A DNA stretch of 64,000 nt. Source: Anaerolineae bacterium (GTDB lineage Bacteria; Chloroflexota; Anaerolineae; B4-G1; DUEL01). Made by a program: the position numbers and the translations under genes. The stretch lies in NCBI GenBank assembly GCA_050049355.1, contig JASFWK010000002.1:3412-67411 (forward strand), given 5' to 3'. Under the pieces are notes generated by a model. It ran no database searches. It was given only the letters and a program-made list of their open reading frames with translations, and was not told the DNA's origin. Positions 7,281 to 47,807 of this stretch are shown here, piece by piece (positions within the stretch are counted from its first letter, which is position 1; every line of letters starts with the position of its first letter).

Positions 7281-9185
7281 CTACAGCATATGGGACGGCT
7301 CGCCGTCCAGCCCCAGCTCTTCCACGGTCCCAGGTCGGGGCACACCGTTCTCATCCCAACCGTGGAGCTCGTAGTACTCCGCTATCATCTGCTTGAACTT
7401 CTCGCGGTCCAGCGCCTTGTCTCTCGCAATCGGCAGGCCTAGAGGAGTCGCCTCATCGAAGTATCGGTCCACCAGCCAGTCGTCCGCCCGCGTGAGCCCT
7501 TCCCGAATGTTGAACATCCGTTCGAGAGTGTAGCCCCGGTCGGCGATCTCCCAAATCTCCTCCGGTGGTAACTCCAGGCCGGTGTTGTAGTAGATCAGTT
7601 TGGAGAGTTCCTCGAAGCCGATCAGGTTGGGACTGAGGAAGATTGTGTGGAACTTGCAGATGCCGGCGGAGTCAATCGCCTGGTACATCATCTCCTGCCA
7701 CTGGACCATGCGGGCCTTTCCCTCGTACGAGGCGTAGTCGGACGACAGCGGGCCATCGTACGGCTGGGGACCACCATATATATCGCGCAGCAGATGATCA
7801 GGCAGGTGGTAGAGGTCTATCGCCGGCCGGCTCCGCAGGTGATCGGAGCCTCGCGAGGCAGTGGCGATGCCCAATGCCAGCGACGGCGTGGGACGCTCGT
7901 CGGAATGCAGGTTGCTCAACCCCTTGACGTGAATGCAGTACTTCAGTGCGTCGTGACCGATCTTCTCGGCAGCCCGCAGCGGCCCCTCGGCCAGGACGTC
8001 GCCAAGCCCCTCGCGCTCGGCGATGCGCGTGACCATCTCGAGTACCGCCTCGTCGTTTCCCCACTCCAGCCTCAGACCATCGGTATCCGCGTCGGTCAGG
8101 ATGCCCTTCTCATAGAGCTCCATCGCCCAGGCGATCATGCTTCCGGTCTCTATTGTGTCCATCCCGTAGGTGTTAACCAGGTGATTGCCGATCAAGATGG
8201 TCTCGAAGTTGTTGCAGCCGACCTCCATGCCGAAGGCACCCTGACTGGTGTATTCGGGTCCCTCGGCGTAGGTCCCGGCATAATCCCCGTCCCTGAGCAG
8301 GTACTTGTGTCGGCAGTGGATGATGCAGCCGTAGCACCCCTCCGTGCCCAGCGCATATTCCTCAATGTGTTCACATTCGATGTTCCCGCCTACCTGTTGG
8401 TTAAGTTGAAAGTTGCGGACGCGCACCAAGCCGGTGGTATTGGTGATCCCATAGATGAACATGGTGCCCCACTTCTGCATGATCTGGGCGAACTTCGTCC
8501 CGGCGATGTGCTTGAGAAGCTCTGCATTGTACTCCAGCGCCTCCTCGGGAAAGCGAATCTCAATGCCCATCGTGCCCCGGACGGCGATGGCCTTGAGGTT
8601 CTTGGAGCCCATCACCGCTCCCATCCCTGTCCGACCGGCGGCGTTCTTCATGCCGGTCATCACGGCAGCGAATCGTACCAAGTTCTCGCCGGCCACTCCG
8701 ATGCACAGGGCCTTGATCTCGGGGTCGCCCAACTCCTCCTCGAGGAGCTCCTGCACTGTGGGGATATCCTCGCCCCAGAGGTGAGAAGCATCGCGGATCT
8801 CGATTTCGCCATCGTGGATCCAGAGGTAAACAGGACTGGCGGCCTTCCCCTTGATAACCACGTGGTCGAAGCCGGCGAAACGGAGTTCGGGACCGAAGAA
8901 GCCGCCCACGTTGGAGCTGCCGATGAAGCCAGTCAGCGGCGACCTGGCTCCCATGTGCGTCCGGGCCGCAGCCGAAGCCAGCGTGCCCACCAGCAGTCCG
9001 GCGCTGACCGTGAGGACGTTGTCCGGACCCAGCGGGTCAACGCCGGGCTCCAAGTGGTTATACAGCAGGTACGTATCCAGCCCCCGCCCACCCAAATACA
9101 GTTCCCGCATCTCGACGGGGATGGAGGCGGTCTCAACCTTGCCGCTGGAGAGGTCTACATACGCGATCCGGCGATCGAGCGCCAT
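7281..9185 (-). CDS. aor: aldehyde:ferredoxin oxidoreductase family tungsto/molybdopterin enzyme
   Basis: 634 aa. The N-terminal domain (GGRGLDTYLL...SPLTGF...GFDHVVIKGKA...IEIRDASHLWG...GENLVRFAAV...GMGAVMGSKNLKAIAV) and the cluster/pterin region (CYGCIIHC, EGPEYT, IDSAGICKF) match AOR-family hallmarks. Confidence 0.9.
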   Translation of the reverse strand: MALDRRIAYVDLSSGKVETASIPVEMRELYLGGRGLDTYLLYNHLEPGVDPLGPDNVLTVSAGLLVGTLASAAARTHMGARSPLTGFIGSSNVGGFFGPELRFAGFDHVVIKGKAASPVYLWIHDGEIEIRDASHLWGEDIPTVQELLEEELGDPEIKALCIGVAGENLVRFAAVMTGMKNAAGRTGMGAVMGSKNLKAIAVRGTMGIEIRFPEEALEYNAELLKHIAGTKFAQIMQKWGTMFIYGITNTTGLVRVRNFQLNQQVGGNIECEHIEEYALGTEGCYGCIIHCRHKYLLRDGDYAGTYAEGPEYTSQGAFGMEVGCNNFETILIGNHLVNTYGMDTIETGSMIAWAMELYEKGILTDADTDGLRLEWGNDEAVLEMVTRIAEREGLGDVLAEGPLRAAEKIGHDALKYCIHVKGLSNLHSDERPTPSLALGIATASRGSDHLRSRPAIDLYHLPDHLLRDIYGGPQPYDGPLSSDYASYEGKARMVQWQEMMYQAIDSAGICKFHTIFLSPNLIGFEELSKLIYYNTGLELPPEEIWEIADRGYTLERMFNIREGLTRADDWLVDRYFDEATPLGLPIARDKALDREKFKQMIAEYYELHGWDENGVPRPGTVEELGLDGEPSHML

Positions 9186-9196: not shown

Positions 9197-9427
9197 CTAC
9201 TCCCGGGCCTGTTCGGTATCAGCCAGCATTCGCTCCCAGTTCTCCCAGACCGGCTTTCTGATCTTGGCTAGCTTGCCCACCCATGAGATGTACCACTCCC
9301 AGCCGCAGTTAGGACAGGTGGCCCTCTCCGCCTTCGGTGGGGGGCGAAAGCGGACAGAGCAGTAATGGCACCGTATCTCCCCAACACGTTTCTTCCTGTT
9401 CTTGGCAGCCTTAGTCTTCGCCGTCAT
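9197..9427 (-). CDS. small basic zinc-ribbon protein, function unknown
   Basis: 76 aa with a Lys/Arg-rich N-terminus and CHYC-x17-CPNC. Tightly packed between the thiolase and aor genes (gaps of 25 and 11 nt). Confidence 0.5.
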   Translation of the reverse strand: MTAKTKAAKNRKKRVGEIRCHYCSVRFRPPPKAERATCPNCGWEWYISWVGKLAKIRKPVWENWERMLADTEQARE

Positions 9428-9452: not shown

Positions 9453-10658
9453 TCAGACAGTGACTTTGAGGACTACCCCCGCGCCCGTATCGCCGGCGGC
9501 GCAGCCAACAAACAGGCCATGCCCTCCCCCCGTCAGGGTCAACTCTTCGATCATCTCAATGATCAGCCGGTGACCAGTGGGACCCTGTGGATGCCCCCAG
9601 ATGAGGGACGAGCCGTAGTTATTCATCGTTTCCGGCTTCACCCCCATCTCGCGGCAGAAGTAGACGTCGTTCACCGCGAAGGGGTTATGGGTCTTGATCA
9701 CCCGCACATCCCTGATGGAGATATCAGCTCGGGAAAGCGCCTGCTGCGCTGCCGGAACGATGGCCTTGGCCATGTACCCCTTCTCGGCCCGCCCTTCCCC
9801 GTAGGATAGAACCTGGATCTCGATCGCGGGATCGCGGCTCAGCTCCCGTGCCCTCTCCCGCGTGGTAACGATGATCCCACAGTTGCCATCGGCGGGGTAG
9901 GTCTGGGTGCCATAGGTAACTGTGCCCCCCTTGATGACCGGATTGAGCTTGGCCAAACCCGCATCCGTGGTGGGGAATACCCCCTCGTCGCCCTCGACAG
10001 TGGCCACGACCTTGCGTCCTCGCGCATCCTTCACCTCGATGGGCAGAGGCATGAAGCGACGCAGGAAGGCGGAGTCGTCCTTGAGCGCATCGCCATACTG
10101 CTCGTGGCGCAGAACCGTCATCTCGTCCTGCTCTTCCCTGGTGATACCTGCCTCCCTGGCAACATTCTCCGCCGTCTCGACCATGGCGTTCTTGGCAAAA
10201 GGATCGTATCCAAAGTTGTCCCAGACCCAGTCCTCCGCCTCGCCCTTGCCACCCGGCCCAAGCGGATTGGGGTAGTAGATGTGAGGGCCATTGCTGCATC
10301 GATCGGCGGTGATACTGAGCAGGACCCGATTCTCGCCGATCTCAACCTCACCTGCAGCGCTGGCGACCACCCGAGCTCCCGTCGCACAGGCCTGGCTGAT
10401 GATGGGACCGGTGGCAGCCTCTGCTCCGATGAGGCCGGCCAACCAGGGCCCTCCGTAGAAGGCGTGCTTCTGCGGGATCGTCAGTCCCAGAAGGACGGAG
10501 TCAAAGACCTGGGCGGGGATCTCCCGCTCGTCAAGGGCTCGCCTGGTGATCTCCGCCGCGAACGGGACAGCGTTGAGGTGGGCGAAACTTCCCTGCCAGC
10601 GGCAGAACGGCGTACTCCAGTACCCCCCGTATGGGATGTAGGCCTTTTCGAAGAACAT
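9453..10658 (-). CDS. thiolase-family protein (acetyl-CoA C-acyltransferase-like)
   Basis: 401 aa with an active-site Cys context (IISQACATGARV) and a C-terminal GHPQGPTG...GCAAGDTG thiolase signature. Confidence 0.85.
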   Translation of the reverse strand: MFFEKAYIPYGGYWSTPFCRWQGSFAHLNAVPFAAEITRRALDEREIPAQVFDSVLLGLTIPQKHAFYGGPWLAGLIGAEAATGPIISQACATGARVVASAAGEVEIGENRVLLSITADRCSNGPHIYYPNPLGPGGKGEAEDWVWDNFGYDPFAKNAMVETAENVAREAGITREEQDEMTVLRHEQYGDALKDDSAFLRRFMPLPIEVKDARGRKVVATVEGDEGVFPTTDAGLAKLNPVIKGGTVTYGTQTYPADGNCGIIVTTRERARELSRDPAIEIQVLSYGEGRAEKGYMAKAIVPAAQQALSRADISIRDVRVIKTHNPFAVNDVYFCREMGVKPETMNNYGSSLIWGHPQGPTGHRLIIEMIEELTLTGGGHGLFVGCAAGDTGAGVVLKVTV

Positions 10659-10828: not shown

Positions 10829-11476
10829 TCAAGCAGCACAGCAGACGTGGACTACCTCCTCCCCCTCAGCCTCCAACGCTGGCACCAGGACCTCCTCCTC
10901 AACGCCCTCCAGGCGAAAGACGAGATAGACGTGCTCTGGGGCCTCGCCCCGGAACACCGCTACGGAGCAGATGTTCGCTCCCAGCCCGGCGATCACTCCA
11001 GCCAGCCGGGCCAGCTCCCCTCGCACGTCAGGCACCCGCAGCGTGACGCGCAGCGAGGCCTCCTCGCCCCCCAGGACCTCTACGAACGTCTCGAAGATGT
11101 CGGTCTCTGTGATCATACCTATCAGCTTACCCTCACGCATAACGGGCAGGCAGCCGATTCTCTTCTCCACCATGCGTCGTGCTGCCTTCTCGAGGGGGGC
11201 ATCCTCAGACACCGTAATGGGCGGGCTACTCATCACCTCCTTGACATGCAAGTTGGCCAACAGGTAGCTCGCCTCGAAGACGGTGAGGGTCGTGGCCGTT
11301 GAGGGCGAAGCATGTAGCAGGTCGGTCTGCGCCACGACGCCGATCAGTCTCCCCTCCTCACTTACCACCGGCAGGTGGCGAATCCCCTTCTCGTGGATGA
11401 TACGGAAGGCCTCGGGAAAGGATGTGAAAGGAGTGACTGTCACTGGGTCAGGAGTCATACGATCTTTCACTAACAT
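10829..11476 (-). CDS. CBS-pair plus ACT-like domain protein (AcuB-like regulator or sensor)
   Basis: Two CBS repeats (MTPDPVTV...IRHLPVV and VMSSPPITV...IGCLPVM) then a C-terminal ACT-like segment. The ATG at 11476 (MLVKDRMT) has a GGAG RBS. The ORF-track start at 11527 would overlap the upstream gene. Confidence 0.75.
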   Translation of the reverse strand: MLVKDRMTPDPVTVTPFTSFPEAFRIIHEKGIRHLPVVSEEGRLIGVVAQTDLLHASPSTATTLTVFEASYLLANLHVKEVMSSPPITVSEDAPLEKAARRMVEKRIGCLPVMREGKLIGMITETDIFETFVEVLGGEEASLRVTLRVPDVRGELARLAGVIAGLGANICSVAVFRGEAPEHVYLVFRLEGVEEEVLVPALEAEGEEVVHVCCAA

Positions 11477-11498
11477 TGGAATCTCCTCTGTGCACAAA

Positions 11499-12272
11499 TC
11501 AATCAGACGCAAACAGTGCCGCTCCAAACGCCCCCATCTCCTGTGGGTGGGGCGCGGCTTCCACGTTGATTCCCGCCCGGGCGCTCAAGAGCTCCGCCAC
11601 GATGGGGTTGAACGCGACGACCCCGCCGGTCATGATCACGCGCCCAGCCAACGGGCCCATCTCCACAACTCGCTTGGCGACCGAGTCGAACAACCCCCTA
11701 AGAATGTTGTTCAGCCTCTCGCCAGCCCTAATCCGGTCCAGTACCTCAGTGGCGGTAAACACCGTGCAATAGCTCCCGATCTCGGCGGTCTCGCTAGCGG
11801 TCTGAGCCAGATCATTGAGCTCGTCGATCGGTATGTCCAACTTGTGGGCTATCTCCTCCAGGAAAGCTCCCGTGCCAGCAGCGCACTTGCGGTTCATCTT
11901 GAAACCGGTGCGTCTGCCCTGTGCATCCAGCCTGACGATCTTACTATCCTGGCCGCCTATGTCTACCACCGTGAGAGCCTGGGGAAAGTAGTGATAGCAT
12001 CCACGACTGTGGCAAGCGATCTCGGTCTTGGTGTCCTGAGCAAAGGGCACACTCTTTCGCCCATAGCCCGTCGCCACGATGGTTTGGACGGCGCCTTGAG
12101 TGATCTCTGCCTGCTCCAGTGCTCCTTCAAATGCCGTCGTCGCCGCCAGGGCCAAGTCTGCACCAGAGCGCCGGACGAAACTCCCAAGTATCCTCCCGTC
12201 GCCATCGATGATCACAGCTTTGGTCGCCGTCGTCCCTACATCAATGCCGGCGAAGGCGGTTCTCCCAGTCAT
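11499..12272 (-). CDS. BadF/BadG/BcrA/BcrD-type ATPase: HgdC-like activator of 2-hydroxyacyl-CoA-dehydratase-type enzymes
   Basis: 257 aa with ASKHA motifs GIDVGTTATKAV, DIGGQDSK, NRKCAAGTG (cluster-bridging Cys), SYCTVF and MTGGVA. Its size matches single-subunit activases. Confidence 0.85.
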   Translation of the reverse strand: MTGRTAFAGIDVGTTATKAVIIDGDGRILGSFVRRSGADLALAATTAFEGALEQAEITQGAVQTIVATGYGRKSVPFAQDTKTEIACHSRGCYHYFPQALTVVDIGGQDSKIVRLDAQGRRTGFKMNRKCAAGTGAFLEEIAHKLDIPIDELNDLAQTASETAEIGSYCTVFTATEVLDRIRAGERLNNILRGLFDSVAKRVVEMGPLAGRVIMTGGVVAFNPIVAELLSARAGINVEAAPHPQEMGAFGAALFASD

Positions 12273-12319
12273 TCGCGATTGGTCACCTGTCAGCAGCTAG
12301 ATCCCTGACTGTCGCCAGC

Positions 12320-12412
12320 ACTTGATCACTGAGATTCTGATTTGTTGAAAGCTGCTCCCTACGCCTGCCTGCCAGGAGTTCGCATATCAGAATCCGTATG
12401 ATCAAGTACTAG
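12320..12412. repeat. 93-bp A/T-richer palindromic intergenic element, copy 1
   Basis: Identical to copy 2 (24387-24479) at about 86 of 93 positions by manual alignment. Terminal inverted repeats ACTTGATCA / TGATCAAGT and sub-terminal ATTCTGAT / ATCAGAAT. The right end supplies the TAG stop of the upstream minus-strand gene. Confidence 0.85.
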
Positions 12413-13362
12413 TGTTCCTCTGGTGCTCCCGACTCCATCTCCAGGCCCTTGACGAGTGCCGTGATGGCGAAGTTACACGGGGTCTGGACACCGAGGGCGC
12501 GGCCCCGCTCAACGATCTTGCCGTTGAGCCAGTCAATCTCGGTCGGGAGCTTCCGCAGAATGTCTTGATGCATGGAGGTCCTGTGGTATCCGGCCTTCTT
12601 CAGATACTGGATACCGTGCTCAAAGAACCCCTCATTCAGCGTCACTCCGTCGGCTTCAGCCACCGCGATCCCTTCTCGCATCAGCTCCTCAGCCAACATC
12701 TCCGTTTGCCCGAAGTCCATCATGTCCTTCATTGGCTTGCGCGTGAGAGCACACATTGCGCTAAGAGCAGCGTTGAGAATGACCTTCTCCCACTCGAACT
12801 TCTTGACGTTGGCGGCGAACTCAGTATCGAGTCCAGCGCCCGTCATGATCTGTGCCATTGTGCGGGCTAGCGGCTCGCTCTTGGGTGTCACAGGCCCGAT
12901 GTAGTTGGGCGGGTTGAAGAACGACATCGCGACGTGCCCGTCTCCCATCTGACTGCCCGCAAAGTTCACCACGATGCGCAGAACACTGTCCGACCCGAAC
13001 GTCTCGGCAAGGAACTCCTCGTTGTCGAGCCCGTTCTGGCAACTGATGAACTTGGTGCCAGGTCGTGTCACGCTCGCGAGCTCTGGGATGATCTGGGGCA
13101 GGACGGATGCCTTGGTGGAGATGATGATCGTGTCTACCTCGGGGAAGCCGGAAAGCTCAGAGATACCATACGCCACACGATCACACTCGGCGGTCATCTC
13201 CAAGACGCCCGTGATCGCAAGCCCCCTCTCCTTGATCGCGTCCAGATGGGGCTTTTGGATATCGCATAGTACCACATAGTGCCCGGCCTTGGCCAGATGT
13301 GCGCCCAGGATTCCACCGACCGGACCTACCCCGACAACAGCCATCTTGGGCTTCTTTGCCAT
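12409..13362 (-). CDS. 2-dehydropantoate 2-reductase (ApbA/PanE) family 2-oxoacid reductase
   Basis: 317 aa with an N-terminal Rossmann fold (MAVVGVGPVGGILGAHLAKAG) and a C-terminal KPR-family segment (TSMHQDI...EIDWLNG). Confidence 0.8.
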   Translation of the reverse strand: MAKKPKMAVVGVGPVGGILGAHLAKAGHYVVLCDIQKPHLDAIKERGLAITGVLEMTAECDRVAYGISELSGFPEVDTIIISTKASVLPQIIPELASVTRPGTKFISCQNGLDNEEFLAETFGSDSVLRIVVNFAGSQMGDGHVAMSFFNPPNYIGPVTPKSEPLARTMAQIMTGAGLDTEFAANVKKFEWEKVILNAALSAMCALTRKPMKDMMDFGQTEMLAEELMREGIAVAEADGVTLNEGFFEHGIQYLKKAGYHRTSMHQDILRKLPTEIDWLNGKIVERGRALGVQTPCNFAITALVKGLEMESGAPEEH

Positions 13363-13428
13363 ACTCTCAGCCCCCTTTCTCCAGTCGCCAGTCGTCAGTT
13401 GCGGTGGTCTCGGGCCACGGGCCCCCGA

Positions 13429-14997
13429 CTACCGGCCACCGGCCAATGTACCACCGTAGCGCTCACGCAGCGCCCGGTGCAAGACCTTTCCCGACCCCGT
13501 CCTCGGCATCTCCTCGTGGGACGTGAAGTGGACCGCCTTGGGCACCTTGTAGGAAGCCACCTTGCCTTTGCAGAAGGCGGTGATTTCATTCTCCCCGGGG
13601 GGACAGGCAGGGTCCTCGGGGACAACGACTGCTGTCACCGCCTCGCCCCACTTCGCGTGAGGCAAGCCAACGATCGCCACTTCCAAGACGCCAGGGTGGG
13701 AACCAATCACTTTCTCCACTTCGCTGGGATAGACGTGCTCGCCGCCAGTGATGATCAGGTTGTCTTTCCGATCCACAATCTCATAGAAGCCGTCCTCATC
13801 GCGCCTGGCCATGTCGCCGGCGCTGAACCACTCTCCCCTGAACGAGCTGGCGGTCTTCTCGGGCAGCTTGTAGTACTCGTCAAAGAGCATGGGCCCGCGG
13901 GAGTACAGCTCACCTACCTCCCCCACGCCCACCTCGTTCCCCTCCTCGTCCAGAACCTTGACGAAGTCTGTGCCCAGTGACTCGAAACCGATGGAGCCCA
14001 GCTTCCTCATCTGGTCCTCGGGCTTGAGCACAGTAACAATCCCTGCCTCCGTCGAGCCGTACGCCTCGTACAGCTCGACGCCTGGGAAGAAGTCCATTAT
14101 CGCCAACTTCATGTCCTTCCTCGCCGGGGCTGAGGAGCAGAGCAGCTTCCTCACGGAGCCCACATCGCGCTTTCTCGCCTCTTCCGACACGTTCAAGATG
14201 AGGCTGTAGTGGGTCGGGATGAGCGAGATGAATGTGATCTTCTCCCTCTCTATGATCTCCAGGATCTCATCGGCGTCGAAGGATCGTGCTGGATGGATAT
14301 AGGCACTTCCCCCGATGTACGTGAAGGTGAAGGTGAAGAAGGTGGAGTTGATGTGACACAGCGGCATGATGTTCAGACATACATCATGCTCGTTGAAGCC
14401 GAAGTCGACTGCGTTGATGAGATAGAAGGCAATGTGTGACTCGTGGGAGCGCACGACTCCCTTGGGCTTACCGGTGGTCCCCGACGTGTAGATCAGAATC
14501 CAGGTGTCCTCCGGCTCTACCTTCACCTCCGGCTCGCTCTCTGGAGCGCCGCGTATGAACTCTTCGTACGCCCTGTATCCCTCCGTCTCTTCACCTACGA
14601 CGATGTAGTTGTCCGGCCCTATGTTTGTCAGCTTCGACCTTATGGCATCCACGGCTGGCGCAAACTCGTCGTGTACGATCAGTACCTCGGCATCTGAATT
14701 GCCAACTATGTACTCTACCTCTGAGCCGACCAAGCGGAAGTTGATGGGCACGATGACGAGTCCCGTTTTCGCCGTAGCCAGGTAGACCTCCACGATCTCG
14801 ATGCTGTTCTCAAGGAGAACTGCGACCTTGTCTCCCTTGCTCAAGCCCAGCGAGAGAAGGCGGTGAGCCAGCCTGTTGACTCGGCTGTTCAGCTCTGGAT
14901 ACGTGAAACTCCTCGCGCTGTCTCTCAGCGCTGTCGTGTTCGGGAACTTCTTCGCATTTACCTTGAGTGCTTGGCCAAGATTCATCCAGTGGGCCAT
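13429..14997 (-). CDS. AMP-dependent acyl/aryl-CoA ligase (ANL superfamily)
   Basis: 522 aa with motifs YTSGTTGKPKGV, YGSTEAG, GDMARRDEDGFYEIVDRKDNLIITGGEHVYP and GSGKVL. The substrate (benzoate, other aryl acid or fatty acid) cannot be read from sequence by eye. Confidence 0.85.
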   Translation of the reverse strand: MAHWMNLGQALKVNAKKFPNTTALRDSARSFTYPELNSRVNRLAHRLLSLGLSKGDKVAVLLENSIEIVEVYLATAKTGLVIVPINFRLVGSEVEYIVGNSDAEVLIVHDEFAPAVDAIRSKLTNIGPDNYIVVGEETEGYRAYEEFIRGAPESEPEVKVEPEDTWILIYTSGTTGKPKGVVRSHESHIAFYLINAVDFGFNEHDVCLNIMPLCHINSTFFTFTFTYIGGSAYIHPARSFDADEILEIIEREKITFISLIPTHYSLILNVSEEARKRDVGSVRKLLCSSAPARKDMKLAIMDFFPGVELYEAYGSTEAGIVTVLKPEDQMRKLGSIGFESLGTDFVKVLDEEGNEVGVGEVGELYSRGPMLFDEYYKLPEKTASSFRGEWFSAGDMARRDEDGFYEIVDRKDNLIITGGEHVYPSEVEKVIGSHPGVLEVAIVGLPHAKWGEAVTAVVVPEDPACPPGENEITAFCKGKVASYKVPKAVHFTSHEEMPRTGSGKVLHRALRERYGGTLAGGR

Positions 14998-15010
14998 GGC
15001 TACCTCCCCA

Positions 15011-17089
15011 CTATATGCCTATCCGAGCGTCCACAACAAGAGCCTGATCCGCATATGCGATGACGGGATTCAAATCCATTTCTTGAATCACAGGCAGGTC
15101 AGTGACAAGCTGAGAGATGCGCTGGATGATATCTATGATCGCTCCCTCGTCCACTCCCTTCCGTCCCCGCACCCCCTTCAGCAAGGGAGCTGCCTTGATG
15201 GAGGCAAGCATCTCCTGCGCCTCGACCGCTGTGATCGGCGAGAGCTTGAAGACGACATCTTCCAGGATCTCGACGGAGATGCCACCGATTCCAAACATGA
15301 TCAGGTGTCCAAGGCCCTCCTTCGCTTTCGCCCCTACGATAACCTCCACACCATCGGGGAGGTACTTCTGGACGAAGAACCTCGGGGCGTCGGCTGCCAA
15401 CCTCTCTCCCATCTCTTCCACCACAGAACGGACAGCATCACCGTCCTTCACGTCGACTGCTACGCCGCCGACATCGGTCTTGTGCACAATTGTCTCAGCG
15501 TCGGCCTTGATCACTACAGGAAAACCAATCTCGGCAGCGGCCTCTTCGGCCTCCTGGGCGTTGTTCGCTATCCTCCATTCGGCAGTGGGGATGCCGTAGG
15601 CAGCCAGAATCTGGTAAACCTCGGTGGCGGAGAGACTCTCCCGGCCGGTCTCTCCTGCTTCCAGCAAGATACCCTCCGCCTTACCCTTGTCCACATCGTC
15701 AAACCGCCTCACCTCACCGACCTCGTGGGAACGGATCTTGTGATACCGAGTCAAAGCAGCAAGCGCCCTTGCTGCCCTCCCCGGTAAGCTGTAGCACGGG
15801 ACACCCCCGTCCCGCAGAGTCCTCAAGGTCTCCGCCCACTGGTGCTTGTCCGTCATCAAGTTACAGATGATGGGCTTCCTTCCCTCCTCGTTCACCTGAG
15901 CAATCTCTCTGGCAATGCTGTCCGTATCCACGAAGAACGGCGTGACGAAGTTGATGTAGAGGCTGTCGATGTGCGCCTCATCCATCATCACGTCCAACGC
16001 AGCCCGGAAATGTTCAGCTCCAGCAGTGGCGAGTACGTCTACAGGATTGCCGACTGCCGCTTCCGGGAATAACCTCCCTCGCAGAATCTCCTTCGCTCTG
16101 TCAGAGAGGGGAGGGATCTCCAATCCGGCGCCTACGAGGACATCTGTCGCAATGACTGCGGGACCTCCCGTGTTCGTTATCATACCCACGCGGTTGCCCC
16201 GGGCAACGGGCTGAGAGGCAAAGGCCGTAGCCGCTTGACAGAGCTCTCCTTCATCTCTGAACAAGAGTATCCCTGCCTTCTCGAAGATGACGTCGGTAGC
16301 GATATCCACTTTGGCGAGACCGCCTGTGTGGGAAGCCGCTGCCTTCGCTCCCTCCTCCGTGCGGCCTGCTTTCATGGCAAGTACAGGCTTCTTGGCCGTC
16401 ACTTCCTTGGCAACCTGCAGGAACGTCGCTGGATCCCTAAGAGCTTCGACGTACAGCACGATCACCCGCGTCCCGTCATCATCGCCATAGTATTCCAGGA
16501 TCTCCGGAATCGTGACATCGCAGGCATTCCCGTTGGAGGCATACATCCGTGTTCCGACACCCGCCTCGGAGAAGGCCTGATGGATTACCTCGGCTACGCC
16601 GCCGCTCAGAGCGACGATCGAGATGGATCCCGGCTCTGGTCTTGTGAATGTGAAGTTGCAGTACGCGCGCACCTCAGGATCTGTGTTGATGATCCCCTGG
16701 CAATTTGGGCCGAATACTCTGATGCCGGCCTCCTCAGCCCTGGCCAGGCAATCCTCCTCTATGGCCGCACCCTCGGGACCGACCTCGGCGAAGCCCCCAC
16801 CATTGAGGATGACGAACTTGACCCCCTTCTTTCCGCAGTCTTCAATCGCCTGAGGCACGAACCTGGCAGGGATGACAATGTGGACAACGTCGACATCGGT
16901 CGGAACCTCCAGGATCGATGGATACGCCTTGATGCCCTGAATCTCGTCCGCCTTGGGATTCACCGGGTAGATTGGCCCTTTGAACCCGAACTCCAGAAGG
17001 TTCTTGACAATCCTATTGCCTATCGAGAGTTCCTTCGTGGATGCACCGATGACTGCCACCGACCTAGGGTTGAACAGTGCGTCCAGCAT
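15011..17089 (-). CDS. ADP-forming (NDP-forming) acyl-CoA synthetase, fused alpha-beta type
   Basis: CoA-binding N-terminus (LFNPRSVAVIGAS...IYPVNPK), succinyl-CoA-ligase-like middle and a C-terminal ATP-grasp. The ATG at 17089 lies 1 nt after the upstream stop. The track start at 17107 is a TTG. Confidence 0.85.
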   Translation of the reverse strand: MLDALFNPRSVAVIGASTKELSIGNRIVKNLLEFGFKGPIYPVNPKADEIQGIKAYPSILEVPTDVDVVHIVIPARFVPQAIEDCGKKGVKFVILNGGGFAEVGPEGAAIEEDCLARAEEAGIRVFGPNCQGIINTDPEVRAYCNFTFTRPEPGSISIVALSGGVAEVIHQAFSEAGVGTRMYASNGNACDVTIPEILEYYGDDDGTRVIVLYVEALRDPATFLQVAKEVTAKKPVLAMKAGRTEEGAKAAASHTGGLAKVDIATDVIFEKAGILLFRDEGELCQAATAFASQPVARGNRVGMITNTGGPAVIATDVLVGAGLEIPPLSDRAKEILRGRLFPEAAVGNPVDVLATAGAEHFRAALDVMMDEAHIDSLYINFVTPFFVDTDSIAREIAQVNEEGRKPIICNLMTDKHQWAETLRTLRDGGVPCYSLPGRAARALAALTRYHKIRSHEVGEVRRFDDVDKGKAEGILLEAGETGRESLSATEVYQILAAYGIPTAEWRIANNAQEAEEAAAEIGFPVVIKADAETIVHKTDVGGVAVDVKDGDAVRSVVEEMGERLAADAPRFFVQKYLPDGVEVIVGAKAKEGLGHLIMFGIGGISVEILEDVVFKLSPITAVEAQEMLASIKAAPLLKGVRGRKGVDEGAIIDIIQRISQLVTDLPVIQEMDLNPVIAYADQALVVDARIGI

Positions 17090-17090
17090 T

Positions 17091-18338
17091 TTATCTGCGC
17101 TCCTCAAGCTGCTCCATGAAGGCCTCTATATTCGTCTCGGTCCGCTCATCAGAGAGACACCTCAGATCGTTCAGATCCCCGTCTATGATCAGACTGGGTA
17201 TACCGGTCTCCTTCTCGAGCCGCTGCGGCATACCGTAGTTGCTGTTCGAGTTATTCGGACAGGTCCGGGCATTGTGGTAGATGATGCCGTCAACCTTGAA
17301 GTAGTCCACCATCTCCTTTATGTATCTCTGCTTGGCCTCATCTGACCGCACGATAAACAACTCCGTGTAGGCCCTTGCCATGCTGGTGAACGGATCCGCA
17401 GCGTCAAAAGCAGAGAATATCCAGCTGTTGCAGTAGGTGGATGCCAGGACACACGCTTTGAGTCTGGCAAACAACACGGAGTGCACCCTCAGTCTGCCCC
17501 AGATCGGCATGCCCTCCCAATAGATCCTGAAGCGCTCGTTATCCACGGCCCCGACCTGGTTCTCAACTCTCTCCTCCAGCTCTGCAAGCAGTGTCCTGTA
17601 ATAGTCCACTGCCCCCTGGGTTCCTCTGCCCACCACTGCGGGCCCCATAAGCGTCGTGCCATCGAAGAAGGTCAAGGGAGACGGAACTGCGGCCGCCGTA
17701 TCCAGCACTTTCTTCCATAGATCAGAGCACTCCCGGGAGAGCGCCACCACTCTCTTGAGTTCTTCCATCTCAAACTGGTTAGCCGATATCTCCTCCAGAG
17801 GCTCAATCATCTGCTCCATCTGCCTGGCTACGGAGGAAACGTGGCTCTCGGTAACCTGCCCAATCCCTCTATGGGTATGAATGCCGATCAGTGGAGCCTC
17901 AAACTCCCTCGCATACCACGCAAACCAGTCCTGAATATCCCGACACTGGTTGGTGTTGAAGACCAACACATCCGGCCTGGGTATGCCTTCGATCCCCTCG
18001 TAGGCTCTTGCAAGCGGTGTCACCCCTTGGACGTAGGCGCCGATGTCGGCCGTCAGGTATGAACAGATCTCCGGTGAATAGCCAAGGGCATTGGCGTGGG
18101 GTATGAGGTCTGTGGCCATGCGGGTGGCACCCAACATCGCCGAGTGAGTCTCAGGGAAATAGACCAGAAAGCCCATAGCCCTCAGTATCTCGGCCGGGCC
18201 CACGCTTGAGCACCACGCCACCTTCCGGTCACCTGTCCTTGATGCGTGGTCAAGTTCATAGTAGTAGTCAGCCATGAACTTCTTCATCTCGCCAGCTGCC
18301 CTGATCTTCTTTCTCCTGCCCTTCCGCTCTTCAGACAT
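17091..18338 (-). CDS. 2-hydroxyacyl-CoA dehydratase / BcrB-BcrC (HgdA/HgdB) family protein, single subunit
   Basis: About 415 aa from the ATG at 18338 (GGGGGAG RBS). Family-typical features are VAWCSSVGPAEILRAMG, a conserved Cys context (TNQCRD) and C-terminal YHNARTCPNNS...IDGDLNDLR. No second dehydratase subunit gene is adjacent. Confidence 0.8.
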   Translation of the reverse strand: MSEERKGRRKKIRAAGEMKKFMADYYYELDHASRTGDRKVAWCSSVGPAEILRAMGFLVYFPETHSAMLGATRMATDLIPHANALGYSPEICSYLTADIGAYVQGVTPLARAYEGIEGIPRPDVLVFNTNQCRDIQDWFAWYAREFEAPLIGIHTHRGIGQVTESHVSSVARQMEQMIEPLEEISANQFEMEELKRVVALSRECSDLWKKVLDTAAAVPSPLTFFDGTTLMGPAVVGRGTQGAVDYYRTLLAELEERVENQVGAVDNERFRIYWEGMPIWGRLRVHSVLFARLKACVLASTYCNSWIFSAFDAADPFTSMARAYTELFIVRSDEAKQRYIKEMVDYFKVDGIIYHNARTCPNNSNSNYGMPQRLEKETGIPSLIIDGDLNDLRCLSDERTETNIEAFMEQLEERR

Positions 18339-18407
18339 AGCTCCCCCTACCTGTGAGCACGCAGCGTCCCCTCGCCTGACTACCAACGACTGGCCACCGA
18401 CCTCAGT

Positions 18408-20285
18408 CTACTCTCCCTTGAACTCCGGCTTCCTTCGCTCCAGGAATGCCGTCATTCCTTCCTTCTGATCCTCAGTGCCAAAGGTCGAAACCACAGCCTC
18501 CAATTCGAAGGCCAGACCGTCATCCAGGCCTCTCTGCAGCGCCTGATTGATGGCTTTCTTGGCTTTCGCCACGGCGACCGGTCCCTGCCTGGCGATGCGT
18601 TCCGCCAGTCGCAGCGCCTCCGTCATCAGCTGCTGGGGCGACACCACTCGGTTGACCAGCCCGATGTTCTCCGCTTCGCCAGCGCTGATCTGACCGCCGG
18701 TGAAGATCAACTCACACGCTCGGCCCTTGCCGATCAACCGCGTCGCCCGCTGCGTTCCACCGAGGCCGGGGAAGATCCCCAGACCCACCTCCGGGAAGCC
18801 CAACCGTGCCTCGGTCGAAGCCAGGCGAATATCGCAGGCCAATGCCAGCTCCAGCCCCCCACCCAACGCGAAGCCGTTAATGGCAGCAATGACTGGTTTC
18901 TCCAGCCTCTCAATATCGTTCATCACCCCCTGCCCAAAGATAGTGAACTGCCGAATTTGGTCCCGATCTTTGGCCAGCATTGCCCGGATGTCCGCCCCAG
19001 CGACAAAGGCTGGTCCCACCCCAGTGATAACCACCGCCCGCACCGTCGGATCGTCTCGCACCCCCGCGATGGCCTCCTTGAGCTCTCGCAGCACTTTCTC
19101 GTTCAGAGCGTTCATCGCCTGCGGTCTGCTCATGGTGATGGTGGCAATGCCGTCTTCCACGTCCAGTTTCACGTCCCGCAGCACCCAAGACGCGCCCGCT
19201 TTGACCTGCTTGGCCATGAGCTCCGGAACGGTGAACGCTTCGTACCGTGCAGCCAACTGCTCCACCAGTTCCAGCGCCCGGTCCAGACCGAGATCGTTCA
19301 TCATCCCAAAGGGTCCCCGCGCCCAGCGCAGCCCAACCAGCGCTCCCCGGTCGGTGTCCTCGACGCTGGTCACACCCTCCTCCACCAGCTGCGCAGCTAC
19401 GCCGAAGACAACGCCCAGCAATCGCCCGCCGACCTCCTCCTTGGCTGCCTCGTCGACCTCCCCCTCCAGTTCCCACTCCCGCCCGGCTTCAAACTGAGCA
19501 GCCAGGGCGGCAGCAGGAGCGTAGAACTCACCCAGCTCCTGGGCCAACGAGCTGGCCGAGTGGTAGGCGATGGGGATACCGGTGGCATTCATCAGCGCAA
19601 ACGGCCCCATACCGATGCGGAAGGTCTCGCGGGCGGCCTCGTCGATCGTGGGGATGTTTGCCAAGCCCTCATCCAACATTCGCGCCGCCTCATTCAGCCA
19701 AGGGACAAAGAAGCGGTTGACAGCAAAGCCCGGCGCATCCCCGACCACGATAGGAACCTTGCCCGTGGCACGCCCAAAGACCAGCAGTGTCTCCAACACC
19801 TCGGCGGCGGTCTCCTCAGCTTCGACGATCTCGAGCAGCTGGTTGATGACGGGAGGATAGAAGTAGTGAAGTCCAGCGACTCTCTCCGGCCGGCCCGTAG
19901 CAGCCGCCATCTCAGCGATGGAAAGGGACGAAGTGTTACTCGCGAAGATCGTATCCGCGTGACAGAGGCGATCCAGGCTTCCAAACAACTCCTGCTTGGC
20001 CTGCAGATCCTCGAAGATGGCCTCGATCACCAGATCGCAGTCGGCCAAATCAGCCAGATCGGTCGTGCCGCTGATGCACGCCCAGGTCGCGTCTCGCCTG
20101 GCCTGAGTCAGCTTGTTCTTCGCCACTCCCTTGTCCAGGAAAGCGCTGATGCGACCCAGCCCCTTCTCCAGCAGCTCCTCGTCTAATTCGCGCACGATGG
20201 TGTCGTAGCCTGCCTGGGCCGCGACCTGGGCAATGCCTGCCCCCATCAGGCCGCACCCGATTACTCCCACTTTCTTGATGGCCAT
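18408..20285 (-). CDS. bifunctional 3-hydroxyacyl-CoA dehydrogenase / enoyl-CoA hydratase
   Basis: 625 aa. The N-terminal NAD-binding HAD domain has VGVIGCGLMGAGIA. The C-terminal crotonase domain has NALN...VVITGVGPAFVAGADI...INGFALGGGLELALACD. Confidence 0.9.
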   Translation of the reverse strand: MAIKKVGVIGCGLMGAGIAQVAAQAGYDTIVRELDEELLEKGLGRISAFLDKGVAKNKLTQARRDATWACISGTTDLADLADCDLVIEAIFEDLQAKQELFGSLDRLCHADTIFASNTSSLSIAEMAAATGRPERVAGLHYFYPPVINQLLEIVEAEETAAEVLETLLVFGRATGKVPIVVGDAPGFAVNRFFVPWLNEAARMLDEGLANIPTIDEAARETFRIGMGPFALMNATGIPIAYHSASSLAQELGEFYAPAAALAAQFEAGREWELEGEVDEAAKEEVGGRLLGVVFGVAAQLVEEGVTSVEDTDRGALVGLRWARGPFGMMNDLGLDRALELVEQLAARYEAFTVPELMAKQVKAGASWVLRDVKLDVEDGIATITMSRPQAMNALNEKVLRELKEAIAGVRDDPTVRAVVITGVGPAFVAGADIRAMLAKDRDQIRQFTIFGQGVMNDIERLEKPVIAAINGFALGGGLELALACDIRLASTEARLGFPEVGLGIFPGLGGTQRATRLIGKGRACELIFTGGQISAGEAENIGLVNRVVSPQQLMTEALRLAERIARQGPVAVAKAKKAINQALQRGLDDGLAFELEAVVSTFGTEDQKEGMTAFLERRKPEFKGE

Positions 20286-21300: not shown

Positions 21301-22413
21301 CTATCCAAAGTCCGGCGTCAGGACAACGCGCCGTGTGAGCTTGCCAGCGTGTGCTTCCTCAAAGACCTCTTGGATCTCGCTCATCGGTCGGGTCTCTACG
21401 AAGGGCTCGATCTCGATGTGCCCACCCAGCACCAACTCCAGGGCGGCCGGATAGTGCTTGGGCAAGCAGCCCCAGGTCCCGATGATCTCGGCGTCAAAAG
21501 CCATAAGCCGCGAGAGGCAATACTCATTGACGTCGGTAGAGAACCCAATCCAGACCAGCTTGCCGACGAAGGACAACAAGCCAAGGGAGATCTCCTGACC
21601 CGCCTTAGCCCCAGTTACCTCAAAGATCGTCCAGCCGAATCTGTGTGGCAGTCCTTGCCCCTTGCATAAGGCACGGAACTCATTCCGCACCTCCTTGGCA
21701 CTCTTGCCAGCCGAGTTGATAACATAGTCAGCGCCGTACTCCAGCATTCGTTCCAGCTTCTCCTGGCTGATGTCGACGCCGATCACCGTCCCAGCCCCAA
21801 ATGCCTTGGCCATCTGGACGACGTACGTACCGACGCCGCCGGCCGCTCCGACGACGACCACCCGATCACCCGGCTGCAGGTCGGCGCGGATGGCCGCCTG
21901 ATACGGAGTCGTGATGGCGTCGGCCACAACCGCCAGCCGCTCCAAAGGCATGTCGCCTCGGCCTTCGACGACGCACAGGTCTGCTGCGGGCACGGGGATG
22001 TGACTTGAGAAGCCGCCGTAGGTACCAAGACTGTTGCCCGGCATCTTCTGCGCCAGACAGCGGTTGCCCCGGCCAGCCGCACAGATGGGACAATCGTTGC
22101 AGGGCATCACCGCCGGGACGATGACCTCCTTGCCGACCCAGCTCTCCTCCCCAGCCACAACGCGGCCGCTGATCTCATGTCCCAGGGTCAGAGGGGGATC
22201 GCTCACCGTGGGCACCCCGTGGTAGAAGTAGCTCAGGTCGGTATGACATACGCCACAGCCAGCGATCTCGATCAGCACCTCGCCGGGCCGCAGTTCTGGC
22301 ACCGGAACCGTCGCGCGCGCTAACTTCCCAGGCGTCTTCTCGCCCGTCTCCCTATCCCTCGTCCAGGGCTGCACCATCTGCCACGTCTGAATTGCGTCAG
22401 GTCTGCCTGCCAT
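21301..22413 (-). CDS. had: Zn-dependent MDR alcohol dehydrogenase, probable 6-hydroxycyclohex-1-ene-1-carbonyl-CoA dehydrogenase
   Basis: 370 aa with GCGVCHTDL zinc motif, structural-Zn cysteines (CNDCPICAAGRGNRC) and GAAGGVG Rossmann fold. Lies immediately downstream of oah, as in benzoyl-CoA pathway clusters. The specific function is inferred from context. Confidence 0.7.
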   Translation of the reverse strand: MAGRPDAIQTWQMVQPWTRDRETGEKTPGKLARATVPVPELRPGEVLIEIAGCGVCHTDLSYFYHGVPTVSDPPLTLGHEISGRVVAGEESWVGKEVIVPAVMPCNDCPICAAGRGNRCLAQKMPGNSLGTYGGFSSHIPVPAADLCVVEGRGDMPLERLAVVADAITTPYQAAIRADLQPGDRVVVVGAAGGVGTYVVQMAKAFGAGTVIGVDISQEKLERMLEYGADYVINSAGKSAKEVRNEFRALCKGQGLPHRFGWTIFEVTGAKAGQEISLGLLSFVGKLVWIGFSTDVNEYCLSRLMAFDAEIIGTWGCLPKHYPAALELVLGGHIEIEPFVETRPMSEIQEVFEEAHAGKLTRRVVLTPDFG

Positions 22414-22446: not shown

Positions 22447-23577
22447 CTACTCCTTCGGCTCGGCCAACACCTCGGCGAAGAAGTCTTCGTCCACCGTGCG
22501 CCCTTCGGCGATCAGCTGACGGTACTTGATGAAGTCAATAGTGTCCTGACCAGTGATCTTCCTGGTGTTGAAGGCATGGAACCCCAGGAACGCCTCGTTC
22601 GACATGTTGGCCATCAGCCAGTGACGGTAGTAATCCTTACCCATGTCCCAGAAGAGTCTCTTCTTCGCCCTGATGGAATCTATGGACATCTGCAGGCAGT
22701 GAGGGAAGAGATTAGTGAAGGTCCACAGCATCTCGTCTATGGCCTTGTCCACCAGTTCGAAGTCAATCGTCGCCTCCTTGACAAACTGGCGTGCCTGCTG
22801 GTACGCCTCCCCGGTCTTGTACTCGCCGTAGACAATCTCGCCATTGCTGACGTAGTCCTCGGTGATCACCATGGGGTTCCGAACCCACTCGCCGTCGTGC
22901 TTGATCACCGGGATCACCTTGCTGACGTATCCCTTGCGGAGCATCTTGTAGGCACTCCACAGCTCACAGGAAATGCAGTTCCACATTGCGTCCTCAATCG
23001 TCAGGAACCAGGGCAAGAAATCAGTGGAGCCGCCCACGGGCGCCGAACCGTGTCGCGGTCCGGCCTGACCGAAGACAGCCAGATCTGAGGCGATGGCCAA
23101 GTCACAGGCGCCGCCAATCTCCTGACCGCCGGCCACGCGCATTCCGTTCACCCTGCAGATGACGGGCTTCTTGGCACCCAGGATACTGTCCACCATGGCG
23201 TTGAAGAGATCCATGTAAAGAGCGTACTCGGTGGGCCGCGCACTGTAGTACTCGGCGTACTCCTTCGTATTGCCGCCCGTGCAGAAAGCCCGGTCGCCCA
23301 CTCCGGTGAAGACGATCGCCACGACACTGCGGTCCATTGAGGCCCGCTTCATGCCGGCGATGACCCCCTTCACCATCTCGGTCGTATAGGAGTTGTATTG
23401 TCGAGGGTTGTTCAGCCACACCCAGGCCGAGTACAGCCCCTCAACAGGATCGCCCTCTGGATCGACGATGGGCTTCTTCTCATATGTCACGCAGGGGGGT
23501 TCGGTCCCGAGAAACTCGCCTCCTCCCACATCGTGATCCTTCAGTTCATCATCTCTTGGCAGCCATTCGAGACCCAT
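22447..23577 (-). CDS. oah: 6-oxocyclohex-1-ene-1-carbonyl-CoA hydrolase (ring-cleaving crotonase; Oah/BamA/BzdY type)
   Basis: 376 aa, unusually long for a crotonase. Contains blocks I recognise from BamA/Oah proteins: NNPRQYNSYTT, FTGVGDRAFCTGGNTKEYAEYY, RVNGMRVAGGQEIG, FGQAGPRHGSAPVGGSTDFLP and EAFLGFHAFN. Confidence 0.85.
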   Translation of the reverse strand: MGLEWLPRDDELKDHDVGGGEFLGTEPPCVTYEKKPIVDPEGDPVEGLYSAWVWLNNPRQYNSYTTEMVKGVIAGMKRASMDRSVVAIVFTGVGDRAFCTGGNTKEYAEYYSARPTEYALYMDLFNAMVDSILGAKKPVICRVNGMRVAGGQEIGGACDLAIASDLAVFGQAGPRHGSAPVGGSTDFLPWFLTIEDAMWNCISCELWSAYKMLRKGYVSKVIPVIKHDGEWVRNPMVITEDYVSNGEIVYGEYKTGEAYQQARQFVKEATIDFELVDKAIDEMLWTFTNLFPHCLQMSIDSIRAKKRLFWDMGKDYYRHWLMANMSNEAFLGFHAFNTRKITGQDTIDFIKYRQLIAEGRTVDEDFFAEVLAEPKE

Positions 23578-28724: not shown

Positions 28725-28735
28725 TCTTGCTCCTT

Positions 28736-29533: not shown

Positions 29534-29577
29534 AGCCTGGCAGGATGGTCAATGGGCTCACTGCGTCAATCTGCCAG

Positions 29578-30888: not shown

Positions 30889-30929
30889 GTCGCAGCCTCC
30901 AATTCGAGCTTCTAGCTTCCGGCCAGTTT

Positions 30930-40559: not shown

Positions 40560-40621
40560 CGGGCGAGACTCATACCGCGCCGGGGGCGGTGCAACGAGCA
40601 GACCTTGCACGCCAGGCGCAT

Positions 40622-40635
40622 AGAACATCTGTTCT
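40622..40635. promoter_or_regulatory. LexA (SOS) box of the GAAC-N4-GTTC (Cheo-box) type
   Basis: Perfect palindrome AGAACATCTGTTCT, 6 nt downstream of the -10 hexamer of the imuB-dnaE2 promoter. Confidence 0.8.
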
Positions 40636-47773: not shown

Positions 47774-47807
47774 GCCGATGAGAGCAAACCCAGCAAGGAG
47801 CGGCAGG

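Follow-up and report, generated by a model that had tools for sequence, protein, structure and literature searches.

A 64-kb stretch of DNA from an uncultured Anaerolineae bacterium (contig JASFWK010000002.1; hereafter the window) encodes, downstream of a benzoyl-coenzyme A (CoA) reductase, a sub-cluster with a third gene of the HGD-D family (17091-18338, minus strand; 415 aa) and a third activase-type ATPase gene (11499-12272, minus strand; 257 aa). From sequence, predicted structure and gene context we conclude, with somewhat better than even confidence, that the two products form an alpha-only dehydratase of the phenyllactyl-CoA type and its activator, which would feed the benzoyl-CoA pathway. 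The enzyme probably acts as a homodimer of catalytic subunits. A preliminary description of this DNA had already pointed to both genes and to the lack of a partner gene adjoining the first, and these claims were borne out by open reading frame (ORF) and Pfam analyses and by a six-frame profile search.

Subunit type and cluster ligands of the HGD-D protein

Judged by its sequence and a predicted model, the 415-aa protein is a subunit of the catalytic (alpha) type. It matched PF06050 with 222 bits (cut-off 28.4) over residues 63-427 of a 431-aa form of the ORF. This longer form, starting at TTG 18386, is possible, but the ATG start gives 415 aa, and the orthologues and the NCBI record have 414-419 aa. 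A protein from a metagenome-assembled genome at NCBI matches the 415-aa protein with 100% identity. Among the solved structures the best match was HadB (3o3m_A, E = 3.7e-49), followed by MbdO (2e-31), BzdO (2e-22) and DCCP (3.6e-3), and none of the beta- or N-type chains was matched. The NCBIfam models yielded 219 bits for HadB (NF052455, cut-off 750), 139 for BcrB (TIGR02260, cut-off 487), 90 for BzdO (TIGR03191, cut-off 449) and 64 for double-cubane proteins (NF040772, cut-off 350), none of the cut-offs being reached. An AlphaFold2 model with a pLDDT of 85.2 resembled HadB most closely (TM 0.88), then MbdO and BzdO (both 0.85), DCCP (0.73) and the beta types (0.66-0.70). The protein shared 25% identity with the window's own BzdO and no detectable similarity with BzdN.

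The preliminary description had named placement within BcrB or BcrC as one outcome that would speak against it. In a neighbour-joining tree (100 bootstraps), in which the references were few and limited to sequences recoverable from PDB alignments, the family fell outside these subunits. It was monophyletic (support 91), sister to HadB (100) and located in the alpha/O clade, apart from the beta/N types. We rejected a spare BzdO or BzdN subunit on the basis of the low identity to BzdO, the missing match to BzdN and the separate clade. A double-cubane protein of the DCCP/YjiM kind was rejected for its weak E-value, its 64 bits against the 350 of NF040772, the fold ranking and an incomplete Cys motif.

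Across 34 full-length members of the family, Cys92, Cys132 and Cys360 were invariant; in the alignment they coincide with the three ligands of the HadB cluster and with Cys95/128/380 of BzdO. Glu63 and Trp42, equivalent to Glu65 and Trp46 of BzdO, were invariant as well. By alignment, the protein appears to have the three-Cys [4Fe-4S] site with an open fourth iron and the Glu that characterize alpha-type dehydratases. His131 of BzdO (C-x-x-H) is replaced by Ile or Val in the family, reading C132-R-D-I in the 415-aa protein. An equivalog score and the partners that accompany BzdO or BcrB, namely an N- or C-type subunit and two ATPases, were likewise not found for the 415-aa protein.

Two further Cys residues are conserved, C43 (100%) and C303 (94%); both are absent from HadB and BzdO, and C43 also occurs in MbdO. 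In the alignment they fall on two of the three positions that ligate the distal sub-cluster of the [8Fe-9S] cluster in DCCP and BzdN. Cys thus occupies five of the six double-cubane ligand positions in the family (the sixth being Val or Asn), three of six in HadB and BzdO, and four of six in MbdO. Together, C43 and C303 were confined to representatives with at least about 40% identity to the 415-aa protein. In BzdO, Trp46 and the substrate ring fill the space of the lost distal sub-cluster; since Trp42 is invariant, C43 and C303 are most likely part of the lining of the substrate pocket.

Absence of a partner gene

Using alpha- and beta-type profiles, we screened every ORF of 60 aa or longer in the six reading frames of the window and of 43 loci. 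No beta-type partner (HadC, FldC or HgdB) was found in the window module or within 10 kb on either side of the HGD gene in any of 40 loci, which represent at least eight lineages. These 40 loci comprise six from exact-protein look-ups and those of 37 GTDB species genomes from which the gene was recovered. The only beta/N-type ORFs detected were the window's BzdN and one separate BzdN/O pair lying 9 kb away in L035. Besides the gene for the 415-aa protein, the 64-kb window encodes only BzdN and BzdO as members of the HGD-D family, whatever the subunit type. That a partner gene is missing throughout these loci indicates a property of the lineage and not a quirk of one contig.

Activator ATPase

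The 257-aa protein, the product of a single gene, belongs to the HgdC/HadI/BcrAD family of ATP-dependent activators (archerases), the type of partner ATPase that marks the superfamily of benzoyl-CoA reductases (BCR) and 2-hydroxyacyl-CoA dehydratases (HAD). It matched PF01869 with 170 bits and passed TIGR00241, the 'acyl-CoA dehydratase activase' model, with 204 against 125 bits. Its matches among the solved structures were MbdQ (5.5e-52), HadI (1.6e-43) and HgdC (3.9e-42), and it was 40% identical to BzdQ and 36% identical to the BzdP-like protein of the window. Cys130 and Cys169 lie within KCAAGTG and CTVF motifs conserved with MbdQ and, by analogy with HgdC, are putative cluster ligands. 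The gene is located 4.8 kb downstream of the HGD gene in the same array. Like the homodimeric activators that serve 2-hydroxyacyl-CoA dehydratases or DCCP, the activator is encoded by one gene.

Gene array of the window

From position 35872 to 3617 essentially every gene is co-directional on the minus strand, and the intergenic distances are short or negative. According to Pfam and NCBIfam, the array is headed by a PaaX-family regulator gene (35045-35872; PaaX, PaaX_M and PaaX_C domains), a family that responds to phenylacetyl-CoA. Genes for a thiolase, an SDR and an ECH with Dch-like similarity come next, followed by BzdN (30930-32093; match to 8s02_B, E = 5e-145), BzdO (29578-30888; TIGR03191, 657 bits, cut-off 449), a BzdP-like ATPase (28736-29533) and BzdQ (27843-28724; 437 bits, cut-off 380). 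The four-gene BCR set that had been recognized earlier is therefore of true Bzd type by structure match and TIGR scores, and BzdNOPQ (27843-32093), a class I benzoyl-CoA reductase, would use up the product of the sub-cluster. Downstream of BzdQ lie genes for a ferredoxin, an 842-aa BzdV-like oxidoreductase, a GNAT protein and a thioesterase. Two enzymes of the lower benzoyl-CoA pathway, Oah/BamA (22447-23577; TIGR03200, 534 bits, cut-off 464) and Had (21301-22413; TIGR03201, 499 bits, cut-off 339), and an amidohydrolase lead up to the sub-cluster.

The sub-cluster begins with a HAD/ECH fusion (18408-20285; 3HCDH_N and ECH_1), in which the HAD part precedes the ECH part, the reverse of FadB, and which is kept directly upstream of the HGD gene in the Anaerolineae loci. 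After the HGD gene, whose stop overlaps the following start by 17 nt, come an ADP-forming acyl-CoA synthetase with fused alpha and beta parts (15011-17107; CoA_binding, Succ_CoA_lig and ATP-grasp_5) and an AMP-forming acyl-CoA ligase (13429-14997; PF00501 and PF13193). A NAD(P)H-dependent 2-oxoacid reductase of the KPR/ApbA family (12409-13362; PF02558 and PF08546) is encoded next. The activase gene follows and overlaps by 29 nt the gene of a CBS-CBS-ACT small-molecule-binding protein (10829-11527; CBS and ACT domains), a possible regulator that is kept in two sister Anaerolineae loci (L003 and L006). A divergent thiolase (9453-10658; Thiolase_N and Thiolase_C) comes last. The preliminary description had placed all of these neighbours correctly.

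For the AMP-forming ligase, the models scoring best were of the FadD5, FadD13 and feruloyl-CoA synthetase types, and a role as benzoate-CoA ligase found no support.

Conservation of the gene neighbourhood

Orthologues of the 415-aa protein with 49-84% identity were found in Anaerolineae, Thermoflexia, Desulfobacterales (including the isolate Desulfosarcina alkanivorans PL12), Syntrophales, Acidobacteriota, Planctomycetota, Thermoplasmatales and Hodarchaeota. The recurrence of the arrangement in dozens of loci from several phyla shows that it is not due to chance, and a further locus on a metagenome contig (L044) has the same arrangement. Neighbours within 10 kb of the HGD gene were counted in the 40 loci by tblastn and ORF clustering. 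The activase was present in 26 loci, mostly directly adjacent, and in 19 of the 24 that extend at least 5 kb on each side. A CoA ligase of any type occurred in 23 of the 40 loci: orthologues of the AMP-forming ligase (49-80% identity) in 18, the ADP-forming synthetase, usually immediately downstream of the HGD gene, in 11, and a PaaK-like ligase in four. Also recurrent were the divergent thiolase (13 loci; 49-79% identity), HAD/ECH or ECH (10-15), Oah (11), a Had-like gene (14) and IorA/IorB (12), while an aldehyde:ferredoxin oxidoreductase (AOR) was present in five and in L044.

KPR accompanied the HGD gene in 14-15 of the 40 loci. Eleven others, all without KPR, had a GlcD-type FAD/FeS 2-hydroxyacid dehydrogenase, with GlcF/CCG separate or fused. 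The identities of GlcD/GlcF and IorA/IorB were confirmed by Pfam and NCBIfam, the IOR_alpha equivalog scoring 752 bits against a cut-off of 651. The alternation of two kinds of 2-hydroxyacid dehydrogenase beside the HGD gene points to a 2-hydroxyacid substrate and would otherwise be hard to explain.

A search of 1.84 billion cluster representatives revealed more than 7,000 clusters at 90% identity below E = 1e-100, from Anaerolineae, Desulfobacterota, Syntrophales, Thermoplasmatota and Asgard archaea. Among the hits were natural fusions of an N-terminal ApbA (KPR) part with a C-terminal HGD-D part. In one of these (P0242, 728 aa), identity to the products of the window genes amounts to 51% for the HGD part and 36% for the KPR part, and all five Cys are kept. 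In two other fusions, P0251 and P0265, the residues that would hold the cluster are replaced (C92S, C132G, C360S/T), and these proteins may be degenerate, cluster-free derivatives.

Individual loci differ in context. L003 and L006 contain the same sub-cluster, from the thioesterase through AOR, with no BzdNOPQ upstream; a FlpD/MvhD-like protein precedes it (L003:1-3284, L006:1-746), and L003 also encodes an HdrA-like flavoprotein of 894 aa. The BCR-type electron module beside the feeder genes thus appears to be exchangeable. The 842-aa BzdV-like protein of the BCR operon in the window (24992-27520, minus strand), a 2Fe-2S/4Fe-4S/GltD-like oxidoreductase, has homologues with 48% identity beside the HGD module on Thermoplasmatales and Hodarchaeota contigs (L008:13178-15694 and L030:8759-10681). 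In four Desulfobacterales loci (L012, L013, L015 and L016), the arrangement consists only of metallo-beta-lactamase, GlcD, GlcF, activase and HGD genes, and no ligase, IorAB or beta-oxidation gene was found within 10 kb. This sparse context suggests that there may be more than one pathway in which the lineage functions. On an archaeal 76-kb contig with Ribosomal_S17e and LSM genes (GCA_975903985.1, L005:9045-14994), the order is activase, HGD, ADP-forming synthetase and AMP-forming ligase. The HGD protein encoded there shares 79% identity with the Anaerolineae protein and falls within the Anaerolineae clade, which suggests a recent inter-domain transfer or a chimeric assembly.

Related gene cluster of Desulfococcus multivorans

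A comparable cluster is present in the sulfate reducer D. multivorans DSM 2059 (Dorries et al. 2016, PMC5109826). In Table S1 of that study, the cluster comprises IorA3 (602 aa), IorB3 (196 aa), an ACT-domain protein, a 'putative phenylpyruvate reductase' of 319 aa, FadD4 (518 aa) and a second ligase. Hbd5, a HAD/ECH fusion of 680 aa and a thiolase of 396 aa are encoded nearby. The set Dmul_24850, Dmul_24860 and Dmul_24870, to which this reductase belongs, carries the annotation of a predicted R-phenyllactate dehydratase alpha subunit, its activator and the phenylpyruvate reductase. The order IorA-IorB-(ACT)-KPR (319 aa)-activator (269 aa)-HGD (416 aa)-ligase matches L009, L034, L040 and L044 in both order and sizes.

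According to the same study, D. multivorans grows on phenyllactate, and phenylacetate and phenylpyruvate were the substrates on which it specifically formed the ligase FadD4 (by position the counterpart of the AMP-forming ligase in the window), the HAD/ECH fusion, the thiolase and IorAB. For cinnamate and 3-phenylpropanoate there is a paralogous set, made up of a ligase, an acyl-CoA dehydrogenase, a thiolase of 396 aa and a fusion of 680 aa (PMC5109826), which supports a cinnamoyl-CoA intermediate for the phenylacetate/phenylpyruvate cluster. The inventory lists no beta subunit, the genome was reported to be devoid of bcrABCD homologues, and, in view of the lack of PadB and PadEFGHI, its authors called the route from phenylacetyl-CoA to benzoyl-CoA unclear (PMC5109826). 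The assignment of Dmul_24850-70 consists of annotation and proteogenomic context only, and the paper contains neither biochemistry nor a comment on the missing beta subunit.

Proposed pathway

We propose that phenylpyruvate, derived from phenylalanine, would be reduced to (R)-phenyllactate by the KPR-family reductase, a family that includes D-2-hydroxyacid and D-mandelate dehydrogenases. One of the two adjacent ligases would convert phenyllactate to phenyllactyl-CoA, the AMP-forming enzyme being the candidate phenyllactate-CoA ligase. The ADP-forming synthetase may provide a cheaper activation of the acid or conserve ATP from a CoA ester. The homodimeric HgdC-type activator would then inject one low-potential electron at the expense of ATP, and the three-Cys [4Fe-4S] cluster with its open iron would bind the thioester carbonyl, so that a ketyl radical expels the 2-hydroxyl group. 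Cinnamoyl-CoA would be released and the electron returned. The HAD/ECH fusion is proposed to hydrate and oxidize cinnamoyl-CoA to benzoylacetyl-CoA, and the thiolase to cleave the latter to benzoyl-CoA and acetyl-CoA. BzdNOPQ, the hydratase (Dch), Had and Oah, encoded just upstream, would carry benzoyl-CoA further. Overall, the conversion of phenylpyruvate to benzoyl-CoA and acetyl-CoA would be redox-neutral, with no carbon lost.

A feeder route from an aryl-2-oxo or 2-hydroxy acid through an enoyl-CoA to benzoyl-CoA had been suggested in the preliminary description. It is supported by the KPR and GlcD associations, the fusions, IorAB, the PaaK-like ligases, Oah and Had, PaaX and the findings in D. 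multivorans.

IorAB may additionally act in reverse, forming phenylpyruvate from phenylacetyl-CoA, CO2 and reduced ferredoxin, and thereby draw phenylacetate into the route; we consider this speculative and of rather low probability. Phenylpyruvate would proceed via phenyllactyl-CoA and cinnamoyl-CoA to benzoyl-CoA and acetyl-CoA, with all carbon kept and ATP gained through the ADP-forming synthetase. Such a reversal would explain both the 'gratuitous' induction of IorAB and the presence of beta-oxidation enzymes on phenylacetate.

Evaluation of the proposed function and its alternatives

Several observations weigh against a phenyllactyl-CoA dehydratase. With 219 bits the 415-aa protein is far from the HadB cut-off of 750, and the substrate specificity of HadB is therefore not transferable. 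The ATPase has the BCR subunit MbdQ, and not HgdC, as its closest solved relative. Known dehydratase pathways use a family III CoA-transferase (FldA/HadA/GctAB). Unlike these systems, the module has ligases in its place, and no CoA-transferase domain was found in the 28 genes scanned between 3.6 and 40.6 kb. Neither IorAB nor PaaK nor an aromatic aminotransferase was found within the 64-kb window, whose outer parts (1-3.6 and 40-64 kb) contain unrelated genes and no IorAB, PaaK or CoA-transferase. The family has two additional conserved Cys, C43 and C303, which by alignment occupy former double-cubane positions, and there is a small chance that a partner subunit is encoded far off in the genome. 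We infer the orthology of Dmul_24850 to the family from gene order and gene sizes, not from sequence. The D. multivorans study names no detection of the dehydratase, activator and reductase proteins and describes their genes only as converting phenyllactate to phenylpyruvate (PMC5109826). In the literature searched, no biochemical characterization of any family member was found.

An alpha-only dehydratase could instead act on a non-aromatic substrate, interconverting 2-hydroxyglutaryl-CoA and glutaconyl-CoA as a link between the lower benzoyl-CoA pathway and 2-oxoglutarate, or dehydrating 2-hydroxyisocaproyl-CoA or another aliphatic 2-hydroxyacyl-CoA from amino acid fermentation. The closest solved relative is indeed an aliphatic 2-hydroxyisocaproyl-CoA dehydratase, and the association with Oah and Had could equally reflect the lower pathway, which ends in glutaryl- and glutaconyl-CoA. 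The GlcD-type neighbour is weakly similar to the D-2-hydroxyglutarate dehydrogenase YdiJ, the adjacent ADP-forming synthetase would permit ATP gain from a 2-hydroxyacyl-CoA, and the short arrangement of L012-L016 (MBL-GlcD-GlcF-activase-HGD) has no aromatic marker. We nevertheless consider an aliphatic substrate unlikely, given that IorAB, a family of arylpyruvate-specific oxidoreductases, passes its equivalog cut-off, PaaK-like ligases recur as neighbours, a PaaX regulator heads the window array, and the cluster proteins of D. multivorans were specific for phenylacetate and phenylpyruvate, not benzoate.

Somewhat less probable still is an ordinary heterodimer, with the neighbouring BzdN or a beta subunit encoded elsewhere as the partner and the orphan status as an artefact of gene placement. 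All characterized HAD and BCR enzymes are alpha/beta heterodimers, BzdN lies 13 kb away in the window, and our view covers 64 kb of the host genome and 10 kb on either side of the gene in the others. Against this, none of the 40 loci has a partner gene nearby, while the activase is usually adjacent, and L003 and L006 carry the sub-cluster with no BzdNOPQ upstream. In D. multivorans, moreover, only the alpha subunit and the activator are listed and bcr homologues are reported to be absent, and the family holds a precedent for a homodimer in DCCP.

Hardly probable, finally, is a one-subunit ATP-dependent reductase of an aromatic, dienoyl or enoyl CoA thioester, with stoichiometric ATP use as in BCR or DCCP: the similarity of the activase to MbdQ, the Cys residues at five of six double-cubane positions, C43 shared with MbdO, and several loci (L017, L020-24, L033, L035 and L038) with the HGD gene beside Oah, Had or Dch and no BCR gene within 10 kb would fit it, but HadB is closest by tree, sequence scores and fold, the acid/base residue His131 of BzdO is missing, as is the N/beta-type electron-storage subunit that BzdNO needs to accumulate two electrons, Trp42 is kept, whose BzdO equivalent fills the lost distal sub-cluster site, and the association and fusion with 2-hydroxyacid dehydrogenases would be left unexplained.

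Comparison with known systems

Returning to an alpha-only phenyllactyl-CoA-type dehydratase, the closest known systems are FldABC/FldI of Clostridium sporogenes and HadBC/HadI of Clostridioides difficile (3o3m). They share with the module PF06050, the catalytic-subunit lineage, the three Cys, Glu and Trp, a single-gene activator and the sequence of 2-oxoacid reductase, CoA activation and dehydration to an enoyl-CoA. The module differs from them in that it has no gene for a beta subunit (FldC/HadC) and in that its reductase is of the KPR or GlcD type and not of the FldH/LdhA type. The 415-aa protein is only 28-30% identical to HadB and has C43 and C303 in addition. Furthermore, its product is predicted to be oxidized to benzoyl-CoA and not, as in the Fld pathway, reduced to phenylpropionate.

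BzdNO/BzdPQ and MbdONQP (8s02, 9g87, 9gai) resemble the system in fold (TM 0.85), the three-Cys [4Fe-4S] open-iron site, the Glu and Trp residues and a related ATPase. Unlike these, the system lacks His131 and an N-type [8Fe-9S] subunit, has one ATPase gene instead of two, and branches with HadB. DCCP/DCCP-R and YjiM/YjiL (6eno, 7yyl) also combine a one-gene catalytic component with a one-gene ATPase, and DCCP is a proven homodimer. The 415-aa protein differs from DCCP by a match of only E = 3.6e-3, a TM of 0.73, an incomplete 7-Cys motif and a Trp replacing the distal sub-cluster, and DCCP itself belongs to the beta/N-like lineage.

The feeder route is not new at the level of annotation, having been anticipated by the 2016 annotation of D. 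multivorans. A 2026 paper mentions that BzS1, a degrader of benzene, has a 'singular' FldB-like gene. In the literature searched, we found no characterization of a single-subunit or homodimeric 2-hydroxyacyl-CoA dehydratase, or of phenyllactyl-CoA in anaerobes that degrade benzoyl-CoA. New with respect to this literature are the alpha-only composition across a large cross-domain family, the alternating KPR and GlcD dehydrogenases together with the KPR-HGD fusions, and the five-Cys signature. It is conceivable, although doubtful, that the family represents a fourth BCR/HAD architecture, a homodimer of catalytic subunits with no electron-storage subunit and with C43 and C303 re-used in catalysis or electron entry, which provides the missing step from phenylacetate or phenylalanine to benzoyl-CoA in strict anaerobes devoid of PadBCD and PadEFGHI.

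How phenylalanine, phenylpyruvate, phenyllactate and phenylacetate enter the benzoyl-CoA pathway in strictly anaerobic bacteria and archaea is an open question. The Pad enzymes found in denitrifiers are missing from sulfate reducers. If true, a redox-neutral route through a phenyllactyl-CoA dehydratase would fill this gap, and the module is common in sediment lineages. An alpha-only enzyme would further imply that ATP-primed ketyl-radical chemistry can do without the accessory beta/N subunit. A recent evolutionary scheme leads from a DCCP homodimer via BzdNO to the HAD heterodimer and does not provide for a dimer made up of two catalytic subunits; the alpha-only enzyme would add an extra stage to this series.

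Further observations on the window

The array continues beyond the thiolase with an ORF of 76 aa (9197-9427, minus strand) that had no Pfam match; ORFs of 75-76 aa occupy the same place in L003 and L006. Genes for a tungsten-type AOR (7281-9185, minus strand; AFOR_N and AFOR_C) and its polyferredoxin (6771-7271, minus strand; Fer4) follow, and the two may oxidize phenylacetaldehyde or another aldehyde. The tail is completed by genes for a DSP phosphatase, an ACS-like ligase and LysE. The phosphatase gene (6260-6769, minus strand) lies between the polyferredoxin and ACS-like genes with junctions of 1 nt and 4 nt, which is unusual for an operon.

Between positions 3000 and 22900, terminator-like sites occurred at chance level and none was intergenic. 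Ten promoter-like sites were found in the same region, against 5.0 ± 2.5 expected, one of them, a weak and uninformative one at 20312-20284, just upstream of the start of the HAD/ECH fusion.

Directly upstream of the PaaX gene lies an ImuB-like/DnaE2 error-prone polymerase cassette (36028-40628, minus strand), and a separate Y-family polymerase is encoded at 47523-48872 (plus strand). A peptide/opine-type ABC transporter operon (51774-59383, plus strand) encloses a gene of the MttB methyltransferase family (55662-57113), which is followed by genes for an RpiR regulator, an AAT-family acyltransferase and an octopine-dehydrogenase-like protein.

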